64,000 bases of DNA from Macrostomum lignano (Eukaryota), in the NCBI GenBank assembly GCA_002269645.1, contig NIVC01001090.1:1-64000 (forward strand). Reading direction: 5' to 3'. Below, one piece after another: positions 1,775 through 64,000 of this stretch (the stretch's first letter is position 1; each line of letters opens with the position of its first letter). The translations under genes and the position numbers were made by a program. The notes under the pieces are model-generated. The model had not been told where the DNA came from and searched no databases. It was given only the letters and a program-made list of their open reading frames with translations.

Positions 1775-2452
1775 TCAGTTGTAGCTCTGGTCTCAGGGAA
1801 GTGAGACACAATGGACTGCAAGGGTTCAGTTGTAGTCTGGTCTCAGGGAAGTGAGACACAATGGACTGCAAGGGTTCAGTTGTAGTCTGGTCTCAGGGAA
1901 GTGAGACACAATGGACTGCAAGGGTTCAGTTGTAGCTCTGGTCTCAGGGAAGTGAGACACAATGGACTGCAAGGGTTCAGTTGTAGCTAATGGTCTCAGG
2001 GAAGTGAGACACAATGGACTGCAAGGGTTCAGTTGTAGCTCTGGTCTCAGGAAAGTGAGACACAATGGACTGCAAGGGTTCAGTTGTAGCTCTGGTCTCA
2101 GGGAAGTGAGACACAATGGACTGCAAGGGTTCAGTTGTAGCTCTGGTCTCAGGGAAGTGAGACACAATGGACTGCAAGGGTTCAGTTGTAGCTCTGGTCT
2201 CAGGGAAGTGAGACACAATTGACTGCAAGGGTTCAGTTGTAGCTCTGTTCTCAGGGAAGTGAGACACAATGGACTTCAAGGGTTCAGTTGTAGCTCTGGT
2301 CTCAGGGAAGTGAGACACAATGGACTGCAAGGGTTCAGTTGTAGCTCTGGTCTCGGGAAAGTGAGACACAATTGACTGCAAGGGTTCAGTTGTACGAGCT
2401 AGCTCTGGTCTCAGGAAAGTGAGACAATTGACTACTAGGGTTCAGTTGTAGA
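1775..2452. repeat. 51-bp tandem repeat (GTTGTAGCTCTGGTCTCAGGGAAGTGAGACACAATGGACTGCAAGGGTTCA), ~13 copies, intronic
   Basis: Read directly; unit contains a small GTCTCA/TGAGAC inverted pair. Confidence 0.95.
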
Positions 2453-2543
2453 ATCGATGTCGAGGTAACTGTATAGTTAATATCAAGGTTAATATCAATG
2501 CAGTGACACAGGCTGTATAACTACCGAACTGAACGTTTTACAG

Positions 2544-2768
2544 CGCTTGGACTATGCCGACCCGCTGACAATCATAGACATAGTTGTGGACATCATGTTC
2601 ATCGTGGACATTCTCATCAATTTTCGCACCACCTACGTGAACAAGAATGACGAAGTCGTGTCACATCCTGGTCGCATCGCTGTGCACTACTTCAAAGGCT
2701 GGTTTCTCATTGACGTGGTGGCGGCGATACCCTTTGATCTGCTGCTTTGGGGCTCCGAGACCGATGAG
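2544..2768 (+). CDS. KCNH2: ERG-type K+ channel exon (S2-S3)
   Basis: CAG|[67 protein letters not shown]...ETDE|GTAATC; 225 nt, phase 0. Confidence 0.96.
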
Positions 2769-3340
2769 GTAATCTCCGTGCAGAGGGGACGCACTTAAAC
2801 CATAGTATCATTTCCAGTAAAAAATCGAAATATTTATTTTGCGTTTGCTGCTAATTCTTCTTAAGTTTTGTCATCGGAGTATTTTGACCGGGGACTGCGG
2901 ATGCTACTGGACTACACGGAATTGACACTGGCGCAAAATCATCAAACATGTTGTCGGCTGCAGAAGAAAACGACCGATGTTGGGACTGCAGGCAAAGCAT
3001 TTGAGGGGGGAGAGACAGCTGGTTTTTAATAGGAATTTATTCTATCGAATGCGTCAGGCTGCCCGCCATAAAGCAACGCCAAGAAGCTTCAGTGCAGGAC
3101 ACTGTTTGGAAGCGATCTGCACGGCAGCGAATTTTCCGATGGTGTTTCTGATGAAAAAAAGTCTACTGCATCAGGAGAGGCAGCTGCACTTCTGGCTGCA
3201 CAGTGAAACACGCGGAAACTTTTAGATCTACCTTAACCCTGCGTCCTATTTGATTTTTTCTTCATTCAGAATTTCTTTATTCTTCATTCAAATTGGTGCG
3301 CGGCCGTCAGCAGCCTGACGTGGCAGCGTGGCAGAAATTT

Positions 3341-3834
3341 TCCATAGACAAACCATAGAAAAGCCATAGACAAACCATAGAAAAGCCATAGACAAACCAT
3401 AGAAAAGCCATAGACAACCATAGAAAAGCCATAGACAACCATAAAAAAGCCATAGACAAACCATAGAAAAGCCATAGACAAACCATAGAAAAGCCATAGA
3501 CAAACCATAGAAAATCCATAGACAAACCATAGAAAAGCCATAGACAAACCATAGAAAAGCCATAGACAAACCATAGAAAAGCCATAGACAAACCATAGAA
3601 AAGCCATAGACAAACCATAGAAAAGCCATAGACAAACCATAGAAAAGCCATAGACAAACCATAGAAAAGCCATAGACAAACCATAGAAAATCCATAGACA
3701 AACCATAGAAAAGCCATAGACAAACCATAGAAAATCCATAGACAAACCATAGAAAAGCCATAGACAAACCATAGAAAAGCCATAGACAAACCATAGAAAA
3801 GCCATAGACAAACCATAGAAAAGCCATAGACAAC
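3341..3834. repeat. 22-bp tandem repeat CCATAGACAAACCATAGAAAAG, ~22 copies, intronic
   Basis: Read directly. Confidence 0.95.
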
Positions 3835-4433
3835 AGAAATGAAATTGTTTTTAACTGCGAGCAATCCGGGCCACAGCGGGAGGCAGAGAGGACAACAAGA
3901 TAAAATCAATCTCTGGTGTACAGACAGAGGATTACTGGATGCATACGTGACTGGTGGTTTGGTGGATTTCATGTCAACGAAATTGATACCAAAAATACGT
4001 CATTCTGCTCAAAGAGACACCAGGAAGCTGGATTCGGCAAAAAAGTTACAATTTTTTCGAAAGTTACAAATGGAAAATTAGGGACTATTATGTAAACTTA
4101 AGTTCATAAGGTGGAGTCCCAAATTGTCTCCTTGCTTGTTCTCTCCTATCCCAGGTCCAATCTTTGTAACTTTTTTAACCAAATTTTTGCCCAGTCGCAC
4201 GGTAGAACGATTGGTTTTTAAATTCTGGGGAAAAAACATGACAAAAACACCGATCAGTCTACTGTCAGTAGTCGGGTATAGGGTCGCTGCACACCCTGTG
4301 TGAGCGAGTGCCTGTGTACATATACTGCATGTGCATGTAAGTGGCTATTGACTCAGAGTTAGTCACCGAAGTGACAGTTGATTTCAACAGTTTTTCAATA
4401 ACTGACGCCAAGCTGCTAACTATCATTCTACAG

Positions 4434-41243: not shown

Positions 41244-41260
41244 GTAAGTTGTGCACTAAT

Positions 41261-42971
41261 AGCGCTCAGTCTCCTCATAAATCGCCCGCATTGGCTGGTT
41301 CTTGAGCGGGTGCAGCACGTCGCCGTTGGGGAAGCACTTGGGACAGCCATGGAAGAAGCAGCCATGAAACTGCAGCACTGTCCTGGTCTCCGGGTCAAAG
41401 CCATCCACCTTACGGCCCATGGCGAAAGCCTCGCCGCCAGAATCGGCTGTCCGCAACCGGCCGCCAAACTCGGTTGCATTCAAATGTGCCAGCCAGCAGC
41501 GCGCCTTGTGCGACTGTACATCGGACCGGCGGGAAATCACCCCAAGAGTGTTGGGCTCCATAAACTTGGTGGTGAAAACAGCCATAGCCAAGCCCGCAAT
41601 GGTGTTGGATTGGACAAATGCGTCCAGTCCGCAAATGTCCTTAATCAGGCGGGTGTACTTTAGACAGCCTTCCCGCAAAATTAACGTGTCCTGCAGGCAA
41701 TAGTCCAGGTACTCCTTATTGAAATTAAACACCTGTCCCTCCTGCTTGGCCAGCCAGTCAGCGATGGAGTCGTGCTGCTTATTCTTCTTCCCGCCGTACA
41801 TATCAATTGAGCAGTAGGGACCTACGTACCCCCAGTTTTGTGGCTGATTGAACACGTGCGGGAAATCTCCTTTGGTCAGTTGGGTGCCCAAACCAAGCGC
41901 CTTTGGGAATTGCGCCAGACCAATAGGGATAAAGTTGAGGCTGTCCTTGAACGTGATCTTGTCGCACTTCATGTACATTAGGCGGCTGTTCTGGAAGATC
42001 ACCTGCGGCTTCTTCTTGGCCAGTCCGTTGAGTAGGGCGCCGAGCAGGAGGAATGCGTCATACGCAGAGCCATTGTGCGCAATTGCAATTGCCCCCTGCT
42101 TGAACACGCTAGTCAGCCAGCAGTAAAAGGCATCGATAGAGTGCAGTCCAACGGATACAAACTCTCGCATCCCACAGGCACAGTCATTGTGGGAGACACA
42201 GCTCGTAAAATCCAGCGCCAGATTGCGTCCCGCAATGCAATTGGCTGAGCTGTGCAACCCCCGCACACGCTGCAGCGGGGCCTGGGGAAGAGTTTGGGAC
42301 ACGCCTCGCAGGAGGTGGCAGCCGTAACCAAGTGTACCCGGTGCTGCTTGGTCCACGTACGTCTCGAAATCATAGTAAACGTACGGGGCGCTAGACTCTT
42401 TGGCTTTGGGCGGGGTGACAAAGCACTCGTGGGTGGCCGTTTCGTCGTACTGCTTGCAGACTGGACACTTGGCGTAACCACACTGATGCTCGGGGGGCTG
42501 GCCTACTTTCAGTTCTTCTAGATAGCCACACGTGCCGCAAACGTGGACTGAATCACAGCGCGATCTGCCCGCCTTATTCTTGCGCTTGTGATTCTCTAGG
42601 CACTGAGCATTATAGCAATTTAGCCCGCAATCATGGCATCTTACATATGCACGGTTGGCTTTGCAGTTGGAGCCCGGAGTCTTGCATGTACTGCAGGCAT
42701 CAGCGCACTTGTGCTTCTCATAATTGCAATCGAAGGCCATCTCGCACTTGGCGCAGTAGTGATCGGAGCCGAAAAACGCAGGCAGCTTGGTGACCACATT
42801 AAAGTGCTGCTCGACCAGGTGCAGGTGCAGAATCTCGGTGCCAGGCAGGTTGAATATGCACGTGTTGGCCTCCTCTGCCCTGTACACTCGTACACCAAAA
42901 TCGTGGCCTGGATGCAGACGGTTCAGGGCCCGTATCGCCTCGGGCAGAACATCCACCCCAAAAGGACCGGC
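41261..42971 (-). pseudogene. polB: Polinton protein-primed PolB: Zn-finger region, exonuclease and VSR-like insert, truncated before the polymerase motifs
   Basis: ExoI YVYYDFET, ExoII AHNGSAYD, FKDSLNFIP, KGDFPH, ExoIII YCLQD, KVDGFD...FHGCFFHGCPKC; the stop comes from left-arm sequence. Confidence 0.93.
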
Positions 42972-43189
42972 CTGCGAGACGATTTGATGAGTCTGTGTGG
43001 AGGCAAAATATTTCTTTTAGTATTCCTTATCGTAAAAATTCTTATCAGAAAATATAGCTTTTAGTATTCCTTATCGTAAAAATTCTTTTAGTAATCCATG
43101 AAAATACTAGAAACCAGAAACGAAATTCTTATCAGAAAATAAATCTTTTGGTATTCCCTGATACAGTGGAAAATTAGTGCACAACTTAC

Positions 43190-43876
43190 CGTGTAGAGGC
43201 CTGCTTCGACTTGCAGCTCAGTCACCAGCTTAGTCTGCTTGGGTGAATTGGCCTTGATCCTGCGCCACACATCCTCGGTGATGCGCTTGGCCACAAATTG
43301 CAGATAGGCGCAGGCCACGACCAGAGCTCGCAGCAGGCACCTCTTGTCCGTGTTGGTGATGCGGACATAGTGCTTTGAAAAAGCGTGCCTCTCTTCTAGA
43401 TGCTTGTTCTCGAGAGCACATCCACCTCGAGGCACCCAGGCCTTTAGCAACCGGATAGAAAAGTTGCTCGACAGTACGCTTGCGTCTGACTGCACAATCT
43501 TGTCAATGTGCTTAAACAACAACTCTGCTGTCATGCGGGCCGCACGCACCGGGGGAGTGTGGGCTGCTTTGAGCATATTATCACTCTCGAATTTCGCGGC
43601 CATAAATTCATCACCAGCCAAATCCTGCTTGAATACTTCGAGCAAACTGGCAAATGTCTCGCGTAAGTCGCTAGTACCATCCAACTTTACCACATATTCC
43701 ACACCCTTGGCCCTAAACTTGGGCAGGTCGCGCTGATTATCCAGCCGGGCCGTAAAACCTGTAGGGGGAATGAAGGGGGAGTGTGAGTCAGCCCGGGTCT
43801 GCCTGGGGAATAGGGGGGCTGGATAACTCACCCGGTCCGGTAACAAATTCAGGTTGGGCAGGCGGGACAAACGCGT
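43190..43876 (-). CDS. polB: pPolB N-terminal exon, spliced via a 218-nt intron (43189-42972) to the exonuclease exon
   Basis: PRGG...ITNTDKRCLLRALVVA pattern typical upstream of Polinton PolB; GTAAGT donor and CAG acceptor give the in-frame join EAGLYT-AGPFGVD (alternative acceptor 21 nt earlier). Confidence 0.82.
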
Positions 43877-51717: not shown

Positions 51718-52389
51718 ATGGCCCGGATCTACATTCTGGAGGGGAACCTGGCGGCAGGCAAAACAACGCTGCTAAGAAACCTGGCCCTGAACTCGCGGTT
51801 GGAGAAATGGGAACCACAGATTCTCTGGGCCAAGGAGCCGGTTCAGGCCTTCACCTCACACCCGAAACTGCCGGCAGAAACGAACCCGCTGGAGGAATTC
51901 CACCGAGGATCTCTATCGGCACTCGGTTTTCAAGTCGATGCGAGCCATTGTCTGCTTCAGCGGAACAAGAACATGAGAGAGCTTCTGCTCTCACCGGAGC
52001 CGGATCAACCAGAGTACGACATTCTGGTGATGGAAAGGCTCATGGCGTCGGCTCACGCATTTAACTCGGTTCTAACAGAGGCGGGGCGGCTAACAACGCT
52101 GGAGAAGGCAATCTGCTGCGCACAGGTGGAGACATTGCAGGCGATCAAACCAAGCGAGGCCACCCTGATCTACCTCGACATTGAGCCAAGCCTGGCACTA
52201 GAGCGGATCCGGCAACGCGGCCGAAAAGGAGAATCCGAAGTGACGCTCGACTATCTGAACCGGCTGCACGAAGCAATGGTGTCCTATTTCTGTCTCTATC
52301 GGGCGGTCCACCGAGTGACGGTCGGACCATCTACAACACCAAGCGACGTGGCTCGGCTGGTTGGGCGCATTGTGCGAGGACTAAACTAA
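51718..52389 (+). CDS. Deoxynucleoside kinase (dNK family), 223 aa
   Basis: P-loop LEGNLAAGKTT, EPV, MER motif, lid IYLDIEPSLALERIRQRGRKGE...DYLNRLHE. Confidence 0.92.
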   Translation: MARIYILEGNLAAGKTTLLRNLALNSRLEKWEPQILWAKEPVQAFTSHPKLPAETNPLEEFHRGSLSALGFQVDASHCLLQRNKNMRELLLSPEPDQPEYDILVMERLMASAHAFNSVLTEAGRLTTLEKAICCAQVETLQAIKPSEATLIYLDIEPSLALERIRQRGRKGESEVTLDYLNRLHEAMVSYFCLYRAVHRVTVGPSTTPSDVARLVGRIVRGLN

Positions 52390-55314: not shown

Positions 55315-58300
55315 ATGGAAAGGAAAATACCAGCGGCCTCTTATGAATATGATCTCGACTCCGTTGAAGAAATTCGCGGTTTAATCTCCCCAACTCTTTC
55401 CAAACATTTGATGGCCAGAGATTCAATAAAATACAGAATTTCCTTTGTTGCAGAATTTTATAAAGGAACTACCGAAAGTTGGATTGAGTTCCAATATCAT
55501 TCAAAGTATCGAACTTTGTTAAATCTGCTTAAAGTTGAAGATAGTATTGAAAGTACAATAAGGGATGTTCTGGATGAATTTGATGAATGGAAGGATAGTT
55601 TTAATGAAAGGGATCGAAATATTATTTTGTTAAGTTAGTAAAGATTATGTTGAAAGTTGTTGGCATTAATCAGTTGAAAGGAGGAACTTATATTTCAATT
55701 CCAATTAAATCAAACGCATTAGTAAATGTTAAGAACACTAAAGACAATAGGTGCTTTCTCTAGTCTATTTTAGCAAAGCTCCATCCTGTGAAGGAACATA
55801 GATATAGAGTTGGTAAGTATACACAGTATATAAATGAAATAAACTTAGGAGACGTTAAATTTCCAGTGGACATTCGAGATATCTCTGAGATTGAAAAGTT
55901 GAACAGCCTCCATATAAATGTGTTTGGATTGAGGGATATAAATACTAAAGAGTCAATATATTCTATTCGTCTGACAGAAGATTACGACAACCCCGATGTT
56001 ATTGATTTACTACTTGTTGAAAATCATTATTGCTTAATAACAGACTTGTGTTTATTCCTCACGTCCCAAAATTACAACAGGGTTTTACTTTGTCGAAAGT
56101 GTCTTCAAGTTAAATACTCCCAGGATGCACTGGATAATCATAAAGCAATCTGTACTGACTTCAAAGTGTCAATTGAAGTTTCAAAGATTGATAAGAGGAT
56201 ATTAAAGTTTAAAAACTACCACATGAGTGTAAGAAAACCATTTGTGTTTTATGCAATATTAGATTATGTAACGATGGATGATAAATCACTAGAGCTATCA
56301 CAATGGACACTTTTTACTAGTTCCGACTATGAGGACATTATAAAATCAAATATTATTTCAAATACTACAGTGGAATCATTCGTTGAAACCGTAATCAAAA
56401 AGTTTGAGCATATAAAAAATGAAATGGATAAATATAAACATCCAAGATTAAGTGATCTCGAAGAGACTGATTACAAAGCGGCAGAACAATATTTTCTCTG
56501 CTCAAGGCCATTTGTAAATAGTAAAAAAATTCGAGAGCATAATCACTACAATGGTAAATATCGCGGCGCAGCATGTCAATCATGTAATACCAAGGAGGCG
56601 AATCAAACAGTGCCATTCGTTCTCTTGAATGAATCTGGAAAAGATCTAAACTATTTGATAGTTCCATTAACACGAATAAAGAATACAGCGTATAAATTGG
56701 ATTTCATTTCTAAAACATCGGAAGACCATGTTGCAATTAAGTGGGGGAATTATACCAGTGGTGTTGTGTTTTTAGATGGATCTAGGTTTTTGGAACCACC
56801 ATTTACACTCTCTGAAGAAGAAATAAAATATTTGCCACCCAGTGATACAACAGCAGTAATTAGAAAGATTTACTCATTTGTCAATGCTTTTGAGAAGTTT
56901 CGATCAACATTTTTGAACTACTTCAAGATAGATCCTGCGTATTGCTTTTCCCTTTCTGGATTATCGTGGGCATGTGGGTTGAAATATACTAATGTGGAAT
57001 TGGAATTACTTGGTGATAAAGATATGATATCCATGGTAGAAAGTGGTATTCGCGGCGGTTTCTCCGGAGTTCTTGGAGATCGATATAAAAAAATGAACAA
57101 TAAGTATTTAGAAAATTATGACAGTAATTCTGAATCGTCATACATGTTATACTTGGACAAGAATAATTTATATGGTGAAGCAATGACGAAAAATCTTCCT
57201 GTGGGAGATTTTAAGTTTGAAAATGATTTAGAGTATCACAAGAATATTCCTAATGACAGGGGTTGTTTTCTTGAAGTTGACCTTGAATATACAGAAGAAT
57301 GTAAGAAAGCTACAAGTAAATATCCACTGGCTCCTGAGAAACGAACAACTAGATTTGAGGATTTATCTGACATACAGAAGCAATACCTCGAAGTCGAAAA
57401 GAAAAAGTTTGTTCAATCCAAGTTGATGTTGACATTTTACAACAAGGAGAAATATGTTTTACATCACAGACTACTTGAGTTTTATGAGAAGATGGGCATG
57501 CGAGTTACGAGAGTTTATAGAATTCTTTCATTCAAAGAGTCAAACTGGTTGAGTAAATACATCGAATTTAATACCAGGTAGAGAATGGAAGCAAAAACTA
57601 AATTTGAGAAAGATCTGTGGAAACTACTAAACAACTCATTCTACGGTAAAACAATCGAAAATGTAAAGAATAGGTCGAACTTTCATCTTGTAGCTGAAGA
57701 AAAAACTGCAAGGCGTTATTTTTCCAAACCAAATTTCAAAGATTTCATTATGTTTAGTGAGAATGCAGTTGGTATCCAAATGTACAAAAAGACAATTGCG
57801 TGTGACAAGCCAATTTATTTAGGAATGGCCATTCTGGATTATGCAAAAATGCTAATGTACGATTGCTATTAAAATGTTATTGAGAAGAATTGGAACAACT
57901 GTCAATTACACTATTCTGATTGTGATTCGTTGATATTCTCAGTGATTACTCAGGATGTTTATGAGGATCTTGAAAAAGTTAAAGAACACTTAGACACATC
58001 GGATTATCCAAGAGAGCATCCACTATACTCCGAAACGAACAAGAAAGTCATTGGAAAGTTGAAAGATGAAATTAATGGCTCAATAATTTCCGAAGCTGTA
58101 TTCCTGCGGTCAAAAGAGTATGCTTTCACTACAGTTTCAGGAGAGTGTGTTACGATCAAGGGAGTTGATAAAAGCAGTACAAATATAAAGTTTGAAACAT
58201 TTAAAAACATACTATAGACAGATTACAAAGATATTCAAAGAGGTAGAGTAAGTATGACTGTATCTGAAAAAAATAAAATATTTATTCGTGAGATTATGAA

Positions 58301-58376
58301 ACAAACAATGAGTCCGTTAGATGATAAAATATATTATTTGGATCCTATCAGATCTATTCCTCATCAGCCAATGTAA
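55315..58376 (+). pseudogene. polB: Protein-primed PolB (second clade): one frameshift (~55610) and four in-frame stops (55761, 57579, 57870, 58215)
   Basis: KGGTYI, DNRCFL, REHNHYNGKYRGAACQSCN, YLDKNNLYGEAM (PolA), KLLNNSFYGK (PolB), YSDCDS (PolC), IGKLKDE. Confidence 0.95.
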
Positions 58377-60287
58377 TCTCATTGATAACATCTTCGTTTA
58401 TTTTTTTCGTGCACTGTAGCAACACATTTCTAGTTTCTTGCTGTTTACCATCTATCCTACGCCTATATCTATCCTTATAATACTTACAATAGTCATTGTG
58501 ATTCTTGAAGAAATCTGTTATGTATTGTTGTTGGAATTCACGTTTCTCACGTTGGGCTAGAGTCCTATAGTATTCACTCTCTGTTGCGGCAGTGTAAATT
58601 TCTCTAATAAGCATAAATGTTTTTTCCTCAGTTTCTAAAAATTCATAATTCTCTTCAATGAAGTGAGAAAACCAATTATAATTTTGTATGAATTCATTAG
58701 TGTTTTCAATTACGCTTTTCGATCGATATATTTCACCCTTTGTTTGCTTGAAAATTTCTAGTAGGTTTTTCATCTCAGCAAACTTATATTTATTCTTAAA
58801 TTCCTCGGTTTTAAGATATGAATCGGCTTTATAAATGTGTTTCGCATGATCAATGATGTCGGTATCTGTTGTATATTTACATGGGTAATTAATATTTATA
58901 ATTCGTCTTTTTTCTGCATCTCCAATATTTTGTCTAAAGTCAGGCTTGTTGTTGCATTCGACTATTAGGGTTGCGTGTAAAACGACATTACACTGGCTTG
59001 AATATAAAGTTCTAGCTTGAATAACTCCTCCACCAGTTAGTAATTTTATTGATGCATTGTTCAAGACACCGCTTACTTCTTGACTGATAACCAACCTCTT
59101 TTTATTAATTTGTGCTAGGGCTGGTTGTGGCCTGTCTATTCTTATTGGTGAATTCAAAACATCAGGACTCAGTGGTGCTGCATAATCAGATCCTAGAGTT
59201 CTAAGAAGTAGGTTGTCCTCAACCCCCTTGCCATTTCCACCAGCGCCATCAAACATTATAAAGTTTTCAACATTTTTGCCCATTAGAGCTGTGGTTATAA
59301 CGGATTCCCAACTCTTTCTATTTTCTGGATCGGGATGAATTTGGTTATGCAGATTAACAATGAAGCCATAGTAGTAATCACTCACTCCAAGTACATCCGA
59401 GTAATTATATCCCACCGATTTAGTAACGTAATCGTCATATCTATACGCGCGAAACTCACCTGTAATGAGGTCGTATACTCCATCATCAAACCCTAGCAAA
59501 TTCCATTGCGTGTCAAATTCAATTTCATTGTTAGTAAACCTCTCTTTGAGCAAAGTAGTTACCTGTTTGAGTTTGTTGGCTCCTTGTATTGAATTTACAT
59601 TCTCCATTGTACTCTGTAGTTTCTTTTCAAGTACTTTTAACTTCTCTTTATCATCAGCCGCCTTCTTAATTGCAATTTCGAGTCTAGTCTTTCGGTGGTT
59701 TAACTCACCGCTAACAAGTTCTGATATTTAAAGAAATATGTCATTTATACTACTTAGTTCTCTCCACTTATCATCATTAAAATAGTAAATACCATCGCTA
59801 TTGTAAATTATATTATTCTTCTGATATTCATAAACAAAATTGGTTATGTTAACGTCAGTGAAATTATCATCAAGAAACTCAATCCTACCATAATAATCAT
59901 ATTTGCTTTTCCATTCCTTATATTTGTTATAGTTTTCTTCACTTCCCCATTTCTTTAGTGTACCGATAGTAAGTCTGTCCTGTGCATCAGCAGAGCTGGT
60001 ATTGGTGCTATTCCACACATTTTTACATGATTCGGAATCGAACTTATCATAATTTACTTTTGACCAATCAGTGAATACTTTGTACATTTCATCACCACTG
60101 CCTATGTCGCGGAGTATAAGTGCTACCTTGTACCAAGAATCATAGTCTTGGTTTTTGTGTTGTATTATACTTAACAACTTTGAAACTCCTTCACAACTAG
60201 GTGGTGGAACGGTGCTTTTTAGTGCCTGTTTATCGGGTTCTTGGTTTTCTTTTTTATCCTGTGGCTTTATTAATCTATTTATCTCAT
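58354..60287 (-). pseudogene. D5-like primase-helicase (PriCT-2 plus SF3 helicase), one in-frame TAA at 59728-59730, 5' part cut off by the Ngaro insertion
   Basis: YDSWYKVALIL...FTDWS...LTIGTLKKW (PriCT-2); LLGFDDGVYDL; Walker A GAGGNGKG; RLVISQE; IKLLTGG..IQARTLY; CNNKP. Confidence 0.92.
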
Positions 60288-60345
60288 CATTAAACCGCGG
60301 GGAAAGAAACGAGGCAAGACAAGGGATGGCGCGAAACGGAACCTC
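60288..60345. repeat. Split direct repeat B2 (58 bp)
   Basis: 57/58 identical to 60619-60676. Confidence 0.92.
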
Positions 60346-60618
60346 TGCTGGTCGAAAAAAAAATGGCAGCCGATGAATTATTTATTTCTTGCGAAAGATT
60401 TAATAGCCGAATGAGAAAAAAAGCTAAAAAAAATTCTGAGCAAACACGAACGCACGGCGAACAAGCGGGGGACCGGACTAAATAAGAAATCAAGCTAGCA
60501 CCCCCGCGACCCCCCGCCCCCCCGCAGCACACGCAACCCCGCACGCACCCGCCCCAGCCAAGCGAGCCCCTCCCCCGCAGTTTAAACGCCCTTACCACCA
60601 ACACAGTGGCAAGGGTAA

Positions 60619-60676
60619 CATTAAACCGCGGGGAAAGGAACGAGGCAAGACAAGGGATGGCGCGAAACGGAACCTC
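60619..60676. repeat. Split direct repeat B1 (58 bp)
   Basis: 57/58 identical to 60288-60345. Confidence 0.92.
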
Positions 60677-60784: not shown

Positions 60785-63700
60785 CTAAACAGTTAGAACG
60801 CAGCCTGCACCGCTGCCCCGATGCGACGAACAGCCCGGCTGGCCACCTGCGGCTGCTGGCCCGCATAGAGATGCACCGCATCGCTCTTCCAGTCGCCAAT
60901 GGCTTTGATATCCTCGATCGCGATGCCTGAACGCCTGGCGAAGGTGGCGCCGCCTCGGCGCAGGCTGTGCATTGAAAAGCGGTTTCTCGGAAGGCCAGCC
61001 TGGTGAAAAAGCTGGGACAACTCGCGCCGGACATGCGCTGCAGTTAAGCTCATCCAGCTTCCTGCTGACTGCAGGGTCGAGAACAGAGGCTGCGAAGGAG
61101 GTGCAATGTCCAGTGAATTCCGGCTGAAATGACGATGGAGCGCACAAAACGGACACAGCGGAGCAGTCGCACTCTTGCAGATGCAGGGCAGAAGAACGAC
61201 ATGACGGCGCTCGCCGAATTGATTCGTCTTGGACAGGCGAACAGAAATCCGAGCCTCCTTGACGCCCAGGCGAAGATCGCTGATCAGCACCGCCGTGCCG
61301 ACGTTTGCCCGGCTGACAGAGCAAAGATTGGCCGCCCGCAGCATGGCCCACCAGCCGGCTAAGATGAGACTCCACAGAGCAGCTCCAAGGCCGGTCTGCA
61401 GCTGTAGGCAGCGCCGCAGTCGCAGAAGATGACTCGGCCCCAGCGCAGCCTTGCGGCGAACGGGCGTTGCGGCCAGCAGCCGCTTCGCACCTCGAAGAGC
61501 CAAGCGCACGAGTCCAGAGTCTGTCGTAACCGGAGAGTCGCTGAGTCGCAATAGAGTGGCGATCGAGCTGATGTATGCCTGCAGGCTCGATTGTCGCGAC
61601 AGGCGATGGTGCATGAGGAAGTTGATGAATTGGCAAATCTGAGTTGGAGTCGGCTTCAGAGCTTTGATCTTTGCCTCGCTGCAGAAAGCGAGCCACGTCC
61701 TCCATTTGCTTTCCAGCGACCGCAGCGTCGCCGGTGCGAAGGCGGCGCGAACTAGAGGGAGCAGCTCGGTTGGCAGCCCAAAGGAGACGGCACCTGAAAA
61801 ACAGGGTGGAGGCGGAAGCAGGACCCAGCGCATGCGAAGCAAATTCAGAGGGATCAATCAATAAATGACCGTAGAAACGAGAGGCAAAATCAATCAGAGC
61901 AGCGTCGCCCGTCAGGAGACGAGAGGCGGGGTCAGCGAGGAACTGGCGGCAACCGGGCATGTAAAAGACCTTGAAAGTGATCTGCTGCTGCATGCAGACA
62001 AGCCCAGCCTGCATCAGAAGGTCATTCACGATGGGACACTTAGCAGAGCCACGGTTGAGCATGCCGACAGCTGCTTGGTTGTCGCTGTAGAAGACCACCT
62101 GGGCCTGATGAAGCTGGTCACGAAACCGCAGCAGAGTGATAGGAGCGATAGCCGCCTCCTTGTAATTGATGTGCAGATCGGCCAAACGGCCGTCCAAGTC
62201 CGAGGAAAAATCAACGAAAAACCAATCGCGGAAGCAGCAACTGCTGAGAATAGCGGCGCCGCCACTGATGCAGGCGTCAGTTTCCACGGCCAAGGCGTCG
62301 GAGAAGATGGGCCAGATGAGACGATCGTGGTAACACCTGACGGCCGATTCCCACCATTGAAAAAGATGCCGCAAACTCTCGCAAATGCGCACTCGACGAT
62401 TTTCACGACTAAGACTCTCGGTAAACTCGATGATGGGGCGAAGGAACATGCGAATTTGTCTTTGCACCTGGAAAAACCAGCTTAGCTTTCCGGTGAGGCG
62501 ACGCAAGAAGGAAGCAGAGACTTGTCTAGCGGCAAGACAGTCAGTGAGCAACTGACGCAGCTCATGCAGCTTTTCCGGAGGCAGAGACATGACTCCGATG
62601 TCTGTCTGGATACGAACACCGAGGAAGACCATGTCCTGACAAGGCGGGGTGCACTTTTTGCGGTTGACCTCGAAGCCAAGATGCTCCAGAAGACTTAGCA
62701 GGTGATCATAGGCCTTGAAGCAATCTCTGTAGGTAGCGGCAGTGACAGCAAAGTCATCCAGATAGTTGACAACAGCGGTATAGCCGTCCTTGACCATGAA
62801 GCGATGAATGGCTTGAGAGACACGGTGAAAGCTAGGAACAGAGCCGGCAGCACCCATGGGAAGGCGTCGGTCTTCCATGTAAGTAACGTGATCGTCGCCG
62901 GAAAACTTGAACTTCAGACCAAGAAGAGGCCAGCAGCTGGGGTGGCAGGCAATGGACCGATACGCCGAGGAAATATCAACTTTGGCCATGAAGTGACCTG
63001 GCCGAAGAAGACGCACGAAATCCTCGACAGACGCAAAACGCAGCTTGCGTTCGGCGGTGAAACAGTCGTTGAGAGACGCATTATGCGGGACGGAGCAGTC
63101 GTGAATGAGTCTGACGCCACCAGAAGATTTGCGAATAGCCCCAAGCGGGCTCACCAAGCTTGGCGGATCTGGCACAACCACGACTCTACCCCTGCGAATT
63201 TCTTCAAGCAGCAGGCATTCGACCTCCTGCCTGAACTCCTCCACCGACGGGTAGTTATCGGACTCAAAGGCGGGCACTTGAGAACCGTCGTCGATTAAAG
63301 AAAAACCAGCACGAAGACTGTCGACAAGGAAATTCTCATCCGGATCTCCACGAAGACGCTCCTCCCAGACAGCCACGACGAGGTCGCCGCACCGACGGGG
63401 ATCGACCGGAGGACAGCCGTTAGCTAGCCGGTGAGCAGGGTCGATGACGGAGGCCGACAAGCAGGCAGGTTTGGTAGCGTCGGAGCCAGGCAGGCAGGCA
63501 GGTTGAGCGACGTCGGAGGCAGGCAGGCAGGCAGGTTGAGCGACGTCGGAGGCAGTCAGGCAGGCAGGTTGAGCGACGTCGGAGGCAGTCAGGCAGGCAG
63601 GTTGAGCGACGTCGGAGGCAGGCAGGTAGGCAGGTTGAGCGACGTCGGAGGCATGCAGGCAGGCAGGTTGAGCGACGTCAGAGGCAGGCAGGCAGGCAGG

Positions 63701-63826
63701 TTGAACGACGTCGGAGGCAGGCAGGCAGGCAGGTTGGGCGATGTCGCGGGCAGGCAGGAAGTTAAAAGAGAAGGCGTCGCAGGCGATGGAATCTGCATGC
63801 GACGCTTCTCTCAGTTTTTTGCTTGA
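60785..63826 (-). CDS. Pol: reverse transcriptase and RNase H; frame open from 63826, extends over the YR ORF in another frame
   Basis: KVDISSAYR, LPMG, YLDD, FLG; RNase H TDA...HINYKE...SDNQAAV...ADPASR; no ATG near the 5' end of the frame. Confidence 0.95.
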   Translation of the reverse strand, partial: SSKKLREASHADSIACDAFSFNFLPARDIAQPACLPASDVVQPACLPASDVAQPACLHASDVAQPAYLPASDVAQPACLTASDVAQPACLTASDVAQPACLPASDVAQPACLPGSDATKPACLSASVIDPAHRLANGCPPVDPRRCGDLVVAVWEERLRGDPDENFLVDSLRAGFSLIDDGSQVPAFESDNYPSVEEFRQEVECLLLEEIRRGRVVVVPDPPSLVSPLGAIRKSSGGVRLIHDCSVPHNASLNDCFTAERKLRFASVEDFVRLLRPGHFMAKVDISSAYRSIACHPSCWPLLGLKFKFSGDDHVTYMEDRRLPMGAAGSVPSFHRVSQAIHRFMVKDGYTAVVNYLDDFAVTAATYRDCFKAYDHLLSLLEHLGFEVNRKKCTPPCQDMVFLGVRIQTDIGVMSLPPEKLHELRQLLTDCLAARQVSASFLRRLTGKLSWFFQVQRQIRMFLRPIIEFTESLSRENRRVRICESLRHLFQWWESAVRCYHDRLIWPIFSDALAVETDACISGGAAILSSCCFRDWFFVDFSSDLDGRLADLHINYKEAAIAPITLLRFRDQLHQAQVVFYSDNQAAVGMLNRGSAKCPIVNDLLMQAGLVCMQQQITFKVFYMPGCRQFLADPASRLLTGDAALIDFASRFYGHLLIDPSEFASHALGPASASTLFFRCRLLWAANRAAPSSSRRLRTGDAAVAGKQMEDVARFLQRGKDQSSEADSNSDLPIHQLPHAPSPVATIEPAGIHQLDRHSIATQRLSGYDRLWTRALGSSRCEAAAGRNARSPQGCAGAESSSATAALPTAADRPWSCSVESHLSRLVGHAAGGQSLLCQPGKRRHGGADQRSSPGRQGGSDFCSPVQDESIRRAPSCRSSALHLQECDCSAVSVLCAPSSFQPEFTGHCTSFAASVLDPAVSRKLDELNCSACPARVVPAFSPGWPSEKPLFNAQPAPRRRHLRQAFRHRDRGYQSHWRLEERCGASLCGPAAAGGQPGCSSHRGSGAGCVLTV
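60793..61857 (-). CDS. Tyrosine recombinase
   Basis: MLRAANL (R), SKTNQ (K), HSLRRGGAT (HxxR), GDW (W), HLY (Y); exact start uncertain. Confidence 0.95.
   Translation of the reverse strand: MIPLNLLRMRWVLLPPPPCFSGAVSFGLPTELLPLVRAAFAPATLRSLESKWRTWLAFCSEAKIKALKPTPTQICQFINFLMHHRLSRQSSLQAYISSIATLLRLSDSPVTTDSGLVRLALRGAKRLLAATPVRRKAALGPSHLLRLRRCLQLQTGLGAALWSLILAGWWAMLRAANLCSVSRANVGTAVLISDLRLGVKEARISVRLSKTNQFGERRHVVLLPCICKSATAPLCPFCALHRHFSRNSLDIAPPSQPLFSTLQSAGSWMSLTAAHVRRELSQLFHQAGLPRNRFSMHSLRRGGATFARRSGIAIEDIKAIGDWKSDAVHLYAGQQPQVASRAVRRIGAAVQAAF
63470..63760. repeat. 33-bp tandem repeat (~9 copies) inside pol, encoding (ASDVAQPACLP)n
   Basis: Read directly; no stops in the pol frame. Confidence 0.9.
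63774..63820 (-). promoter_or_regulatory. Candidate -1 programmed ribosomal frameshift signal
   Basis: A AAA AAC (63820-63814) in the gag frame directly before TGA, 8-nt spacer, then stem GCGTCGCA/TGCGACGC (63805-63798 with 63781-63774). Confidence 0.78.
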
Positions 63827-63999
63827 TTAGCACGGTTGGTGTGGCTAGCAGCAGCATGTGAGCCACCACAAATCCGACAGCAGTGTAGATAGTTGCAGGT
63901 GTCTCTCTGACATCCGGTGGCGCTGTTAAACAGTCCACAGACCGCTTGGCCTCGCGAAGCGAATTGTCGGCGGCCTCCGCGGCCAGTCTGGCTGGCTTG
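63811..63999 (-). CDS. Gag C-terminus (partial)
   Basis: VCGLFNSATGCQRDTCNYLHCCRICGGSH, the Cys/His motif typical of DIRS/Ngaro gag; ends AKN*. Confidence 0.85.
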   Translation of the reverse strand, partial: QASQTGRGGRRQFASRGQAVCGLFNSATGCQRDTCNYLHCCRICGGSHAAASHTNRANQAKN

Positions 64000-64000
64000 C

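Follow-up and report, generated by a model that had tools for sequence, protein, structure and literature searches.

A near-invariant A AAA AAC heptamer as the probable gag-pol frameshift signal of Ngaro-type retrotransposons in Macrostomum lignano, with a recombinase probably made by splicing

Structure of the element

The window is the whole stretch of 64,000 nt that was analysed (positions 1 to 64,000 of Macrostomum lignano contig NIVC01001090.1, assembly GCA_002269645.1). Its end carries, on the minus strand, part of a retrotransposon that spans about contig position 65107 to 60288 (Table 1). The direct repeats of the element are ordered A, B, A, B, with identities of 94-100% for A and 98% for B, and this repeat structure is also present in copy L037. 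The open reading frames follow the order gag-like, reverse transcriptase/RNase H (RT/RH) and tyrosine recombinase (YR), giving A-gag-pol-YR-B-A-B. The gag frame starts outside the window at contig position 64896 and encodes 361 aa with an N-terminal SAP domain (E 2e-9); we also read a coiled-coil-like stretch and a Cys/His knuckle in it. In the pol frame, Pfam RVT_1 matched aa 267-406. The RNase H-like region, which extends to about 61800, had no Pfam match of its own, and it is covered in alignments with full-length homologues, of which 3 of 35 carry PF17917. The recombinase region matched PF00589 with an E value of 0.004, below the curated cut-off, and contains the expected catalytic motifs (R, K, HxxR, W, Y). 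No stop closes the pol frame through the entire recombinase gene (60785-61793, minus strand), and several other families also have such long open extensions.

No inverted pair was found in the element, and no methyltransferase domain was matched by Pfam in the scanned pol stretches 61700-63826 and 61793-62599. The repeat order, the gene order and the lack of inverted repeats fit the structural definition of Ngaro in the passages of PMC9210276 and PMC3783388, which describe A1...B1-A2-B2 repeats, the order gag, RT/RH, YR, and, as here, no methyltransferase; those passages give no gag-pol mechanism. By this definition the element is a Ngaro-type retrotransposon (order DIRS), as the initial annotation had proposed.

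Table 1. Coordinates of the features of the Ngaro-type element in the window
Feature	Position	Strand	Remark
gag 3' end, closing ...QAKN, with Cys/His knuckle	63811..64000	minus	
TAA closing the pol frame on the upstream side	63827..63829	minus	overlap with gag thus limited to 16 nt
Slippery heptamer AAAAAAC	63814..63820	minus	A_AAA_AAC in gag frame
gag stop TGA	63811..63813	minus	immediately 3' of heptamer
Whole hairpin with 7-bp lower stem	63766..63812	minus	63812-63806 with 63772-63766, bulged C 63773
Upper stem-loop of 8 bp; additional pairing within its 16-nt loop	63774..63805	minus	predicted stimulator
TTTTAAC motif	63761..63767	minus	shared by most families of the genome; reading phase variable
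About nine 33-nt repeats, 11 aa each, at pol start	63455..63751	minus	
pol frame, 1013 open codons	60785..63826	minus	
Pyrimidine tract and CAG/G acceptor	61793..61811	minus	phase 1 of YR frame; AG 61795-61794
Tyrosine recombinase coding region	60793..61793	minus	weak PF00589 match and motifs
Split direct repeat B1	60619..60676	minus	
Split direct repeat A2	60426..60620	minus	A1 outside window, contig 64913-65107
Split direct repeat B2, element 3' end	60288..60345	minus	

The element interrupts a Polinton-like primase-helicase gene (window 58354-60287, minus strand, and contig 65110-65742), with a Prim-Pol match (E 3e-4) upstream and a D5_N match (E 8e-11) downstream of the insertion. The insertion-free site was present in contigs of all four sequencing runs. 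This resembles the Ngaros of Cafeteria burkhardae, which are inserted in endogenous virophages according to the passages of PMC8547959; unlike what is described there, the other copies of the present family do not lie in this element. No targeting of Polinton-like DNA is thus shown: seven of the eight other loci had no match to the flank and the eighth was the same insertion. Further mobile or virus-like ORFs of the window lie at 41256-43603, 51718-52389 and 55764-57581. We take them to be fragments resembling protein-primed polymerases and a nucleoside-kinase-like ORF, and an Endonuclease_7 match (E 7e-4) was among them.

The gag-pol junction

The initial annotation had described a -1 ribosomal frameshift signal between gag and pol, and its reading of the junction was reproduced. 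Gag ends GCA AAA AAC TGA with the heptamer in phase, pol is in the -1 frame, and A AAA AAC is the sole XXXYYYZ-type heptamer in the 3.2 kb of element within the window. A 3' structure is expected 5-9 nt downstream of a -1 slippery heptamer. Here a spacer of 8 nt is followed by the 8-bp stem with a 16-nt loop, also as described before, in which GCGTCGCA (63805-63798) pairs with TGCGACGC (63781-63774) on the minus strand. The upper stem has a folding energy of -16.7 kcal/mol (z -4.1) and the whole hairpin of -26.2 kcal/mol (z -5.6); in each of four windows folded, 0 of 200 shuffles were as stable as the native sequence. The extension of the stem past the bulge was found again, with a length of 7 bp including one G-U pair instead of 6 bp. 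The lower stem begins as little as 2 nt past the heptamer and would probably be open already when a ribosome occupies the slip site.

The pol frame opens just after the upstream TAA and has no ATG, GTG or TTG for 122 codons, in agreement with the initial annotation. Its start-like codons are CTG at codon 5, TTG at codon 123, GTG at codon 151 and ATG at codon 280 (62989), and this first ATG falls inside the RT match. The start-less opening stands, with the addition that the near-cognate CTG, which overlaps the gag stop, had been overlooked. The 33-nt repeats at the beginning of pol have a unit length that preserves the frame, and their number differs among copies (one copy has a 29-nt unit). 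This variation in frame-keeping steps fits translation just after the slip site.

Copies of the family

A genome-wide pattern permitting five to eight A at the junction matched 8 places in the 764 Mb searched, and all eight family copies had exactly six A (A6C); some share flanks, so that they represent fewer independent insertions. In a sister family, short-read contigs from three of four runs (two studies) span the gag-pol junction unspliced, with no indel listed. Homopolymer errors occur in long-read assemblies, and a few variants with A5, A7 or A8 exist among the junctions described below, so it could be argued that the A-run is an assembly error or chance and that the true element has a single gag-pol frame. 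The agreement of 8/8 copies, 13/14 families, independent short-read contigs and outside genomes speaks against it; the copy and family counts refute this reading, and we regard its chance as negligible. The A-run is thus not a sequencing error.

The stem is kept in six of the eight copies; in one of them a lower-stem G-C pair has become G-U. Covariation, which had been suggested as a check, gave no support: the copies are too alike, this single change is all that was found, and no compensatory pair change occurs within the family. In the other two copies, L034 and L035, the 3' arm is lost, pol continues the gag frame past the stop, and an ATG follows 12 nt further on. This variant is the strongest case against the frameshift reading. 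The two copies share both truncation points and gag is broken in both, therefore we read them as one dead variant. Copies with gag and pol in frame, named beforehand as an observation that would count against frameshifting, thus exist in this family, confined to one truncated, gag-broken variant. Another copy of the family, L039 (G000:C42:322000-330000), lies beside or within another reverse-transcriptase-like ORF, which we take to resemble the Penelope type.

Other Ngaro families in the genome

A search with RT scored 148 of 1932 candidates, and 83 distinct loci were examined. The first 49 loci were clustered at 80% RT identity and truncated copies were merged, which gave 14 families with RT identities of 36-68% between them. 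A loose genome-wide pattern returned thousands of mostly unrelated matches and was left out. In 13 of the 14 families gag ends with A AAA AAC in the -1 phase, immediately ahead of the stop or one codon before it, so the heptamer is conserved in phase across divergent families. In all 13 the preceding codon is NNA, Lys is AAA and Asn is AAC; in gag codon usage, AAA accounts for 27% of Lys codons, and A for 8-23% of those third positions. The joint chance of this pattern over the 13 families is about 1e-20, which is overstated because the families were treated as independent. Codon choice of this kind points to a constraint that acts on the nucleotides.

Eight of the 83 loci had no gag end. The remaining 75 junctions comprised 61 with A6C, four with A7C, one with A5C, one with A8C and eight without such a run (three in the fourteenth family, one with A AAA GAC and four without recognisable junction). 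One A7 copy of another family, L073, has gag and pol fused. These longer runs and the fused copy would fit a stutter of RNA polymerase on the A-run that adds an A, so that some RNAs carry gag-pol in one frame. Bases gained in this way would be passed on to progeny copies, yet A6C is found at 61 of 75 junctions. In addition, the run is short, always divided as A_AAA_AAC and closed by C, features that would matter to tRNA slippage and not to a polymerase. No insertion was listed in the contigs, which drop rare variants. We consider polymerase stutter extremely improbable as the source of Pol.

Ribosomes might also reinitiate in the pol frame after the gag stop, on the overlapping CUG or, in some families, on AUG. 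The CTG at codon 5 of pol suits this, as do the AUG overlapping the stop (TGATG) in two families, the early AUG in others and the ATG of the L034/L035 variant. Against this, 6 of 13 families have CTA or CGA as the overlapping codon, and in 4 of 13 the translated stretch is free of ATG to beyond the start of RT homology. Reinitiation also has no need for an A AAA AAC in phase, and the L034/L035 variant is the truncated one with broken gag. We give this explanation a very slim chance, and retain -1 frameshifting as the preferred reading.

The fourteenth family (L091, L110 and L111; G000:C3789, C2342 and C2401) has gag and pol in frame with a single TGA between them. Its junction, CAY TGA CTG, occurs at 10 places genome-wide. 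A Met at codon 22 of this family allows reinitiation as an alternative to readthrough there.

The 3' structure is less regular than the heptamer. Strong folds were found in 8 of 13 families, with z of -2.4 or lower in 5 of 13, and the structure was absent (dG above -4.5) in 5 of the 13 families folded. Stems of different families are unrelated to each other. It means that the stem is a family-specific and not a conserved Ngaro feature: as a predicted part of the signal it holds for the present family, and as a universal Ngaro element it fails in those five families.

Of 13 families, 11 carry a TTTTAAY or TTTTAT motif downstream of the gag stop, and its phase is not constant. It often precedes a long pyrimidine-rich stretch without AG, here window 63792-63426 (minus strand). 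In outside relatives TTTTAA is rare (8 of 40). The motif could be a decoy branch point or a stimulator that binds protein. Pairing of TTTTAA with the A-run was rejected, as pairing probabilities supported it in at most one or two of 13 families, and a Phe-Asn peptide motif was rejected because the phase varies.

One multi-copy family (L079-L081, e.g. G000:C172:723000-729300) has gag and pol and neither recombinase nor gag donor, and its pol opens with a long 12-nt repeat array. It is likely mobilised in trans.

Relatives outside the genome

A profile of 26 RT-RH proteins recovered 86 loci, 80 of them from metagenomes and 6 from bacterial bins; a single-protein metagenome search and a viral-contig search found no relatives, and no Gag homologues were found among proteins of 198-632 aa. 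The six loci in bins (L210-L215) are Ngaro-like elements on short contigs labelled Sedimenticola and Thiodiazotropha, and are probably animal host DNA misplaced in bacterial bins.

Junctions could be resolved in 40 of the 86 loci, the other 46 being left out of the counts: 15 were in the -1 arrangement, 16 had one in-frame stop and nine were in +1. An in-phase A AAA AAC was present in 14 of the 15 -1 loci and in none of the 25 others. A gag-frame TTT CGT inside the overlap was present in 8 of the 9 +1 loci and in none of the 31 others. The 16 in-frame stops were TAG-G (6), TGA-C (7), TGA-T (2) and TGA-G (1), never TAA, and TAA closes gag in 11 of 24 shifted loci. The sequence 3' of these outside junctions mostly folds weakly.

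A quick IQ-TREE analysis of 52 RT rows, unrooted and with unnamed relatives, was carried out after L204 and L209 were dropped for shortness. On this unrooted tree the well-supported branches force at least four changes between the -1 and the in-frame arrangement. The +1 loci form one group with weak support, and the in-frame family of the present genome is sister to a -1 family with support 99. The junction sequences and the tree suggest that the gag-pol step is interchangeable across Ngaro-like relatives, by -1 slip, +1 slip or stop readthrough.

Expression of the recombinase

The recombinase lies in the +1 frame of pol in this family and in the -1 frame in most others. The phase of the acceptor relative to YR is unchanged despite the altered offset of pol and YR. 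A phase-1 acceptor before the YR homology was found at 23 of 27 loci and in all 13 YR-bearing families. The exceptions are a damaged copy, with its acceptor in phase 2, and three under-threshold loci, all of one family, which have a phase-1 CAG at the same place. In gag of the present element there is a phase-1 donor G/GTAAGC at codon 125, from which an intron would start at contig position 64523, outside the window. Of 13 assessable families, 12 have a phase-1 GTRAG donor 3' of the coiled coil, between gag codons 105 and 144, and the sole family without it is the one that lost YR; the phase bias of the donor is partly built in because a donor in phase 2 would create a stop codon. An in-frame ATG before YR is present in only 2 of 13 families, this family included. 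Among outside relatives, the best acceptor was in phase 1 at 33 of 43 loci and a strict donor was present within the first 170 codons in 12 of 29 gags.

In the sister family L101, donor and acceptor were located first and four sequencing runs, whose RNA status was guessed, were then compared. One contig of run X7 joined 1799 to 4201 with GT..AG, skipping 2401 nt, as located beforehand. This joint, with a depth of 6.9 and 24 letters on the short side, was in one of the four runs, a putative RNA run, and was not listed in the other three. For the present family no splice joint was listed in four runs, which also had no cover over its gag-pol junction; among runs recorded as RNA, none was listed as containing the element. 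Taken together, the recombinase is probably made by splicing the gag donor to the YR acceptor.

Pol could likewise come from spliced RNA, if the gag donor were joined to a distant acceptor in the N-terminal part of pol with TTTTAAC as a far branch point. In this copy the 369 nt that follow 63793 contain no AG. The dinucleotide first occurs at 63424, in phase 1 of pol, which matches the phase of the gag donor, and ahead of the conserved part of pol. Of 11 families compared, only 4 have their first AG 3' of the motif in phase 1, a proportion expected by chance, and the family without donor retains both motif and pol. In the L101 contigs of the four runs no joint into pol was listed, and three cross the junction unspliced. 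Splicing into pol would also leave the conservation of the heptamer unexplained. We consider it very unlikely. A separate mRNA for pol had been named as a finding that would speak against frameshifting, and we found neither a usable pol ATG nor a conserved in-frame acceptor.

With the alternatives weighed, the in-phase heptamer, the overlap, the start-less pol and the conservation of the heptamer support the canonical -1 arrangement that had been proposed. From this comparison of sequences, we conclude that the A AAA AAC signal is real and very probably functional.

Comparison with known systems

The junction shares with retroviruses and animal LTR elements the tandem in-phase heptamer, the short spacer, the 3' structure and the start-less pol, as these are treated in the passages of PMC5009743. 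There A_AAA_AAC is among the shiftiest heptamers on mammalian ribosomes, pol is in -1 in 28 of 51 animal elements, and neither DIRS nor tyrosine recombinase is mentioned in those passages. In contrast to retroviruses and LTR elements, pol here has no protease or integrase, the recombinase is reached by another route, one heptamer is near-invariant over very distant families, and the 3' structure is often missing.

The +1 relatives, to which the element of this window does not belong, resemble the influenza A PA-X site UCC_UUU_CGU (given in the same passages of PMC5009743) in their gag-frame UUU CGU. They differ from it in that CGU or CGG precedes in place of UCC, and in that the host sequence is a retrotransposon.

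Gag-pol readthrough at UAG-G is used by gammaretroviruses, and readthrough at UGA-C by alphaviruses. Similar stops, a single in-frame UAG-G or mostly UGA-C, are present in the 16 outside loci and in the fourteenth family of this genome. Unlike those viruses, the candidate readthrough Ngaro relatives are interleaved on the tree with -1 families.

Concerning the recombinase, a quotation from Poulter and Butler 2015 in PMC13003380 holds that translation of the Ngaro YR ORF probably depends on programmed frameshifting. In the form quoted there, this proposal does not fit the present elements, where YR has conserved splice sites and, in this family, lies in the +1 frame of pol. In the literature that our search reached, we found neither a slippery site nor readthrough between gag and pol, nor a splice from gag to YR, described for YR retrotransposons. 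The founding Ngaro paper (Goodwin and Poulter 2004) and the review by Poulter and Butler (2015), outside its reach, may already suggest a gag-pol frameshift. The passages of PMC6681497, PMC7192593, PMC4495291, PMC13465315, PMC9341512, PMC3266345 and bioRxiv 2022.06.16.496473 describe no such signal. Supplementary or repeat-database annotations of such elements could already mention these signals.

Proposed mechanism and significance

We propose that one full-length RNA would be translated into Gag, with most ribosomes terminating behind Asn361. In a minority of them, the Lys and Asn tRNAs paired to A AAA AAC would slip back by one base. The stem 8 nt downstream and the adjacent stop may slow the ribosome and stimulate the slip. 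Shifted ribosomes would then read the repeat linker, RT and RNase H to give Gag-Pol. A spliced RNA, joining the first 125 gag codons to YR, would give a SAP/coiled-coil-recombinase.

As a general picture, we favour, with some reserve, that a single RNA serves for three Ngaro proteins. Recoding would supply Pol, removal of pol by splicing would supply a chromatin-binding SAP/coiled-coil-recombinase, and the gag-pol step would have been switched repeatedly between -1, +1 and readthrough. In this picture the A AAA AAC families without a stem would point to a further stimulator, perhaps a protein on the U-rich TTTTAA tract.

The -1 mechanism itself is textbook; what may be new is that the heptamer is nearly invariant among Ngaro families, that +1 and readthrough signals stand in its place in relatives, and that the recombinase is probably made by splicing. 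These findings offer exact sites for tests, namely a single heptamer in the case of Gag-Pol and a donor-acceptor pair in that of the recombinase. The donor-acceptor pair alters the predicted N-terminus of the recombinase and how such elements should be annotated. Closely related natural pairs that would use frameshift and readthrough for the same job, together with the A AAA AAC sites without a stem, are good material on the origin and replacement of recoding signals.
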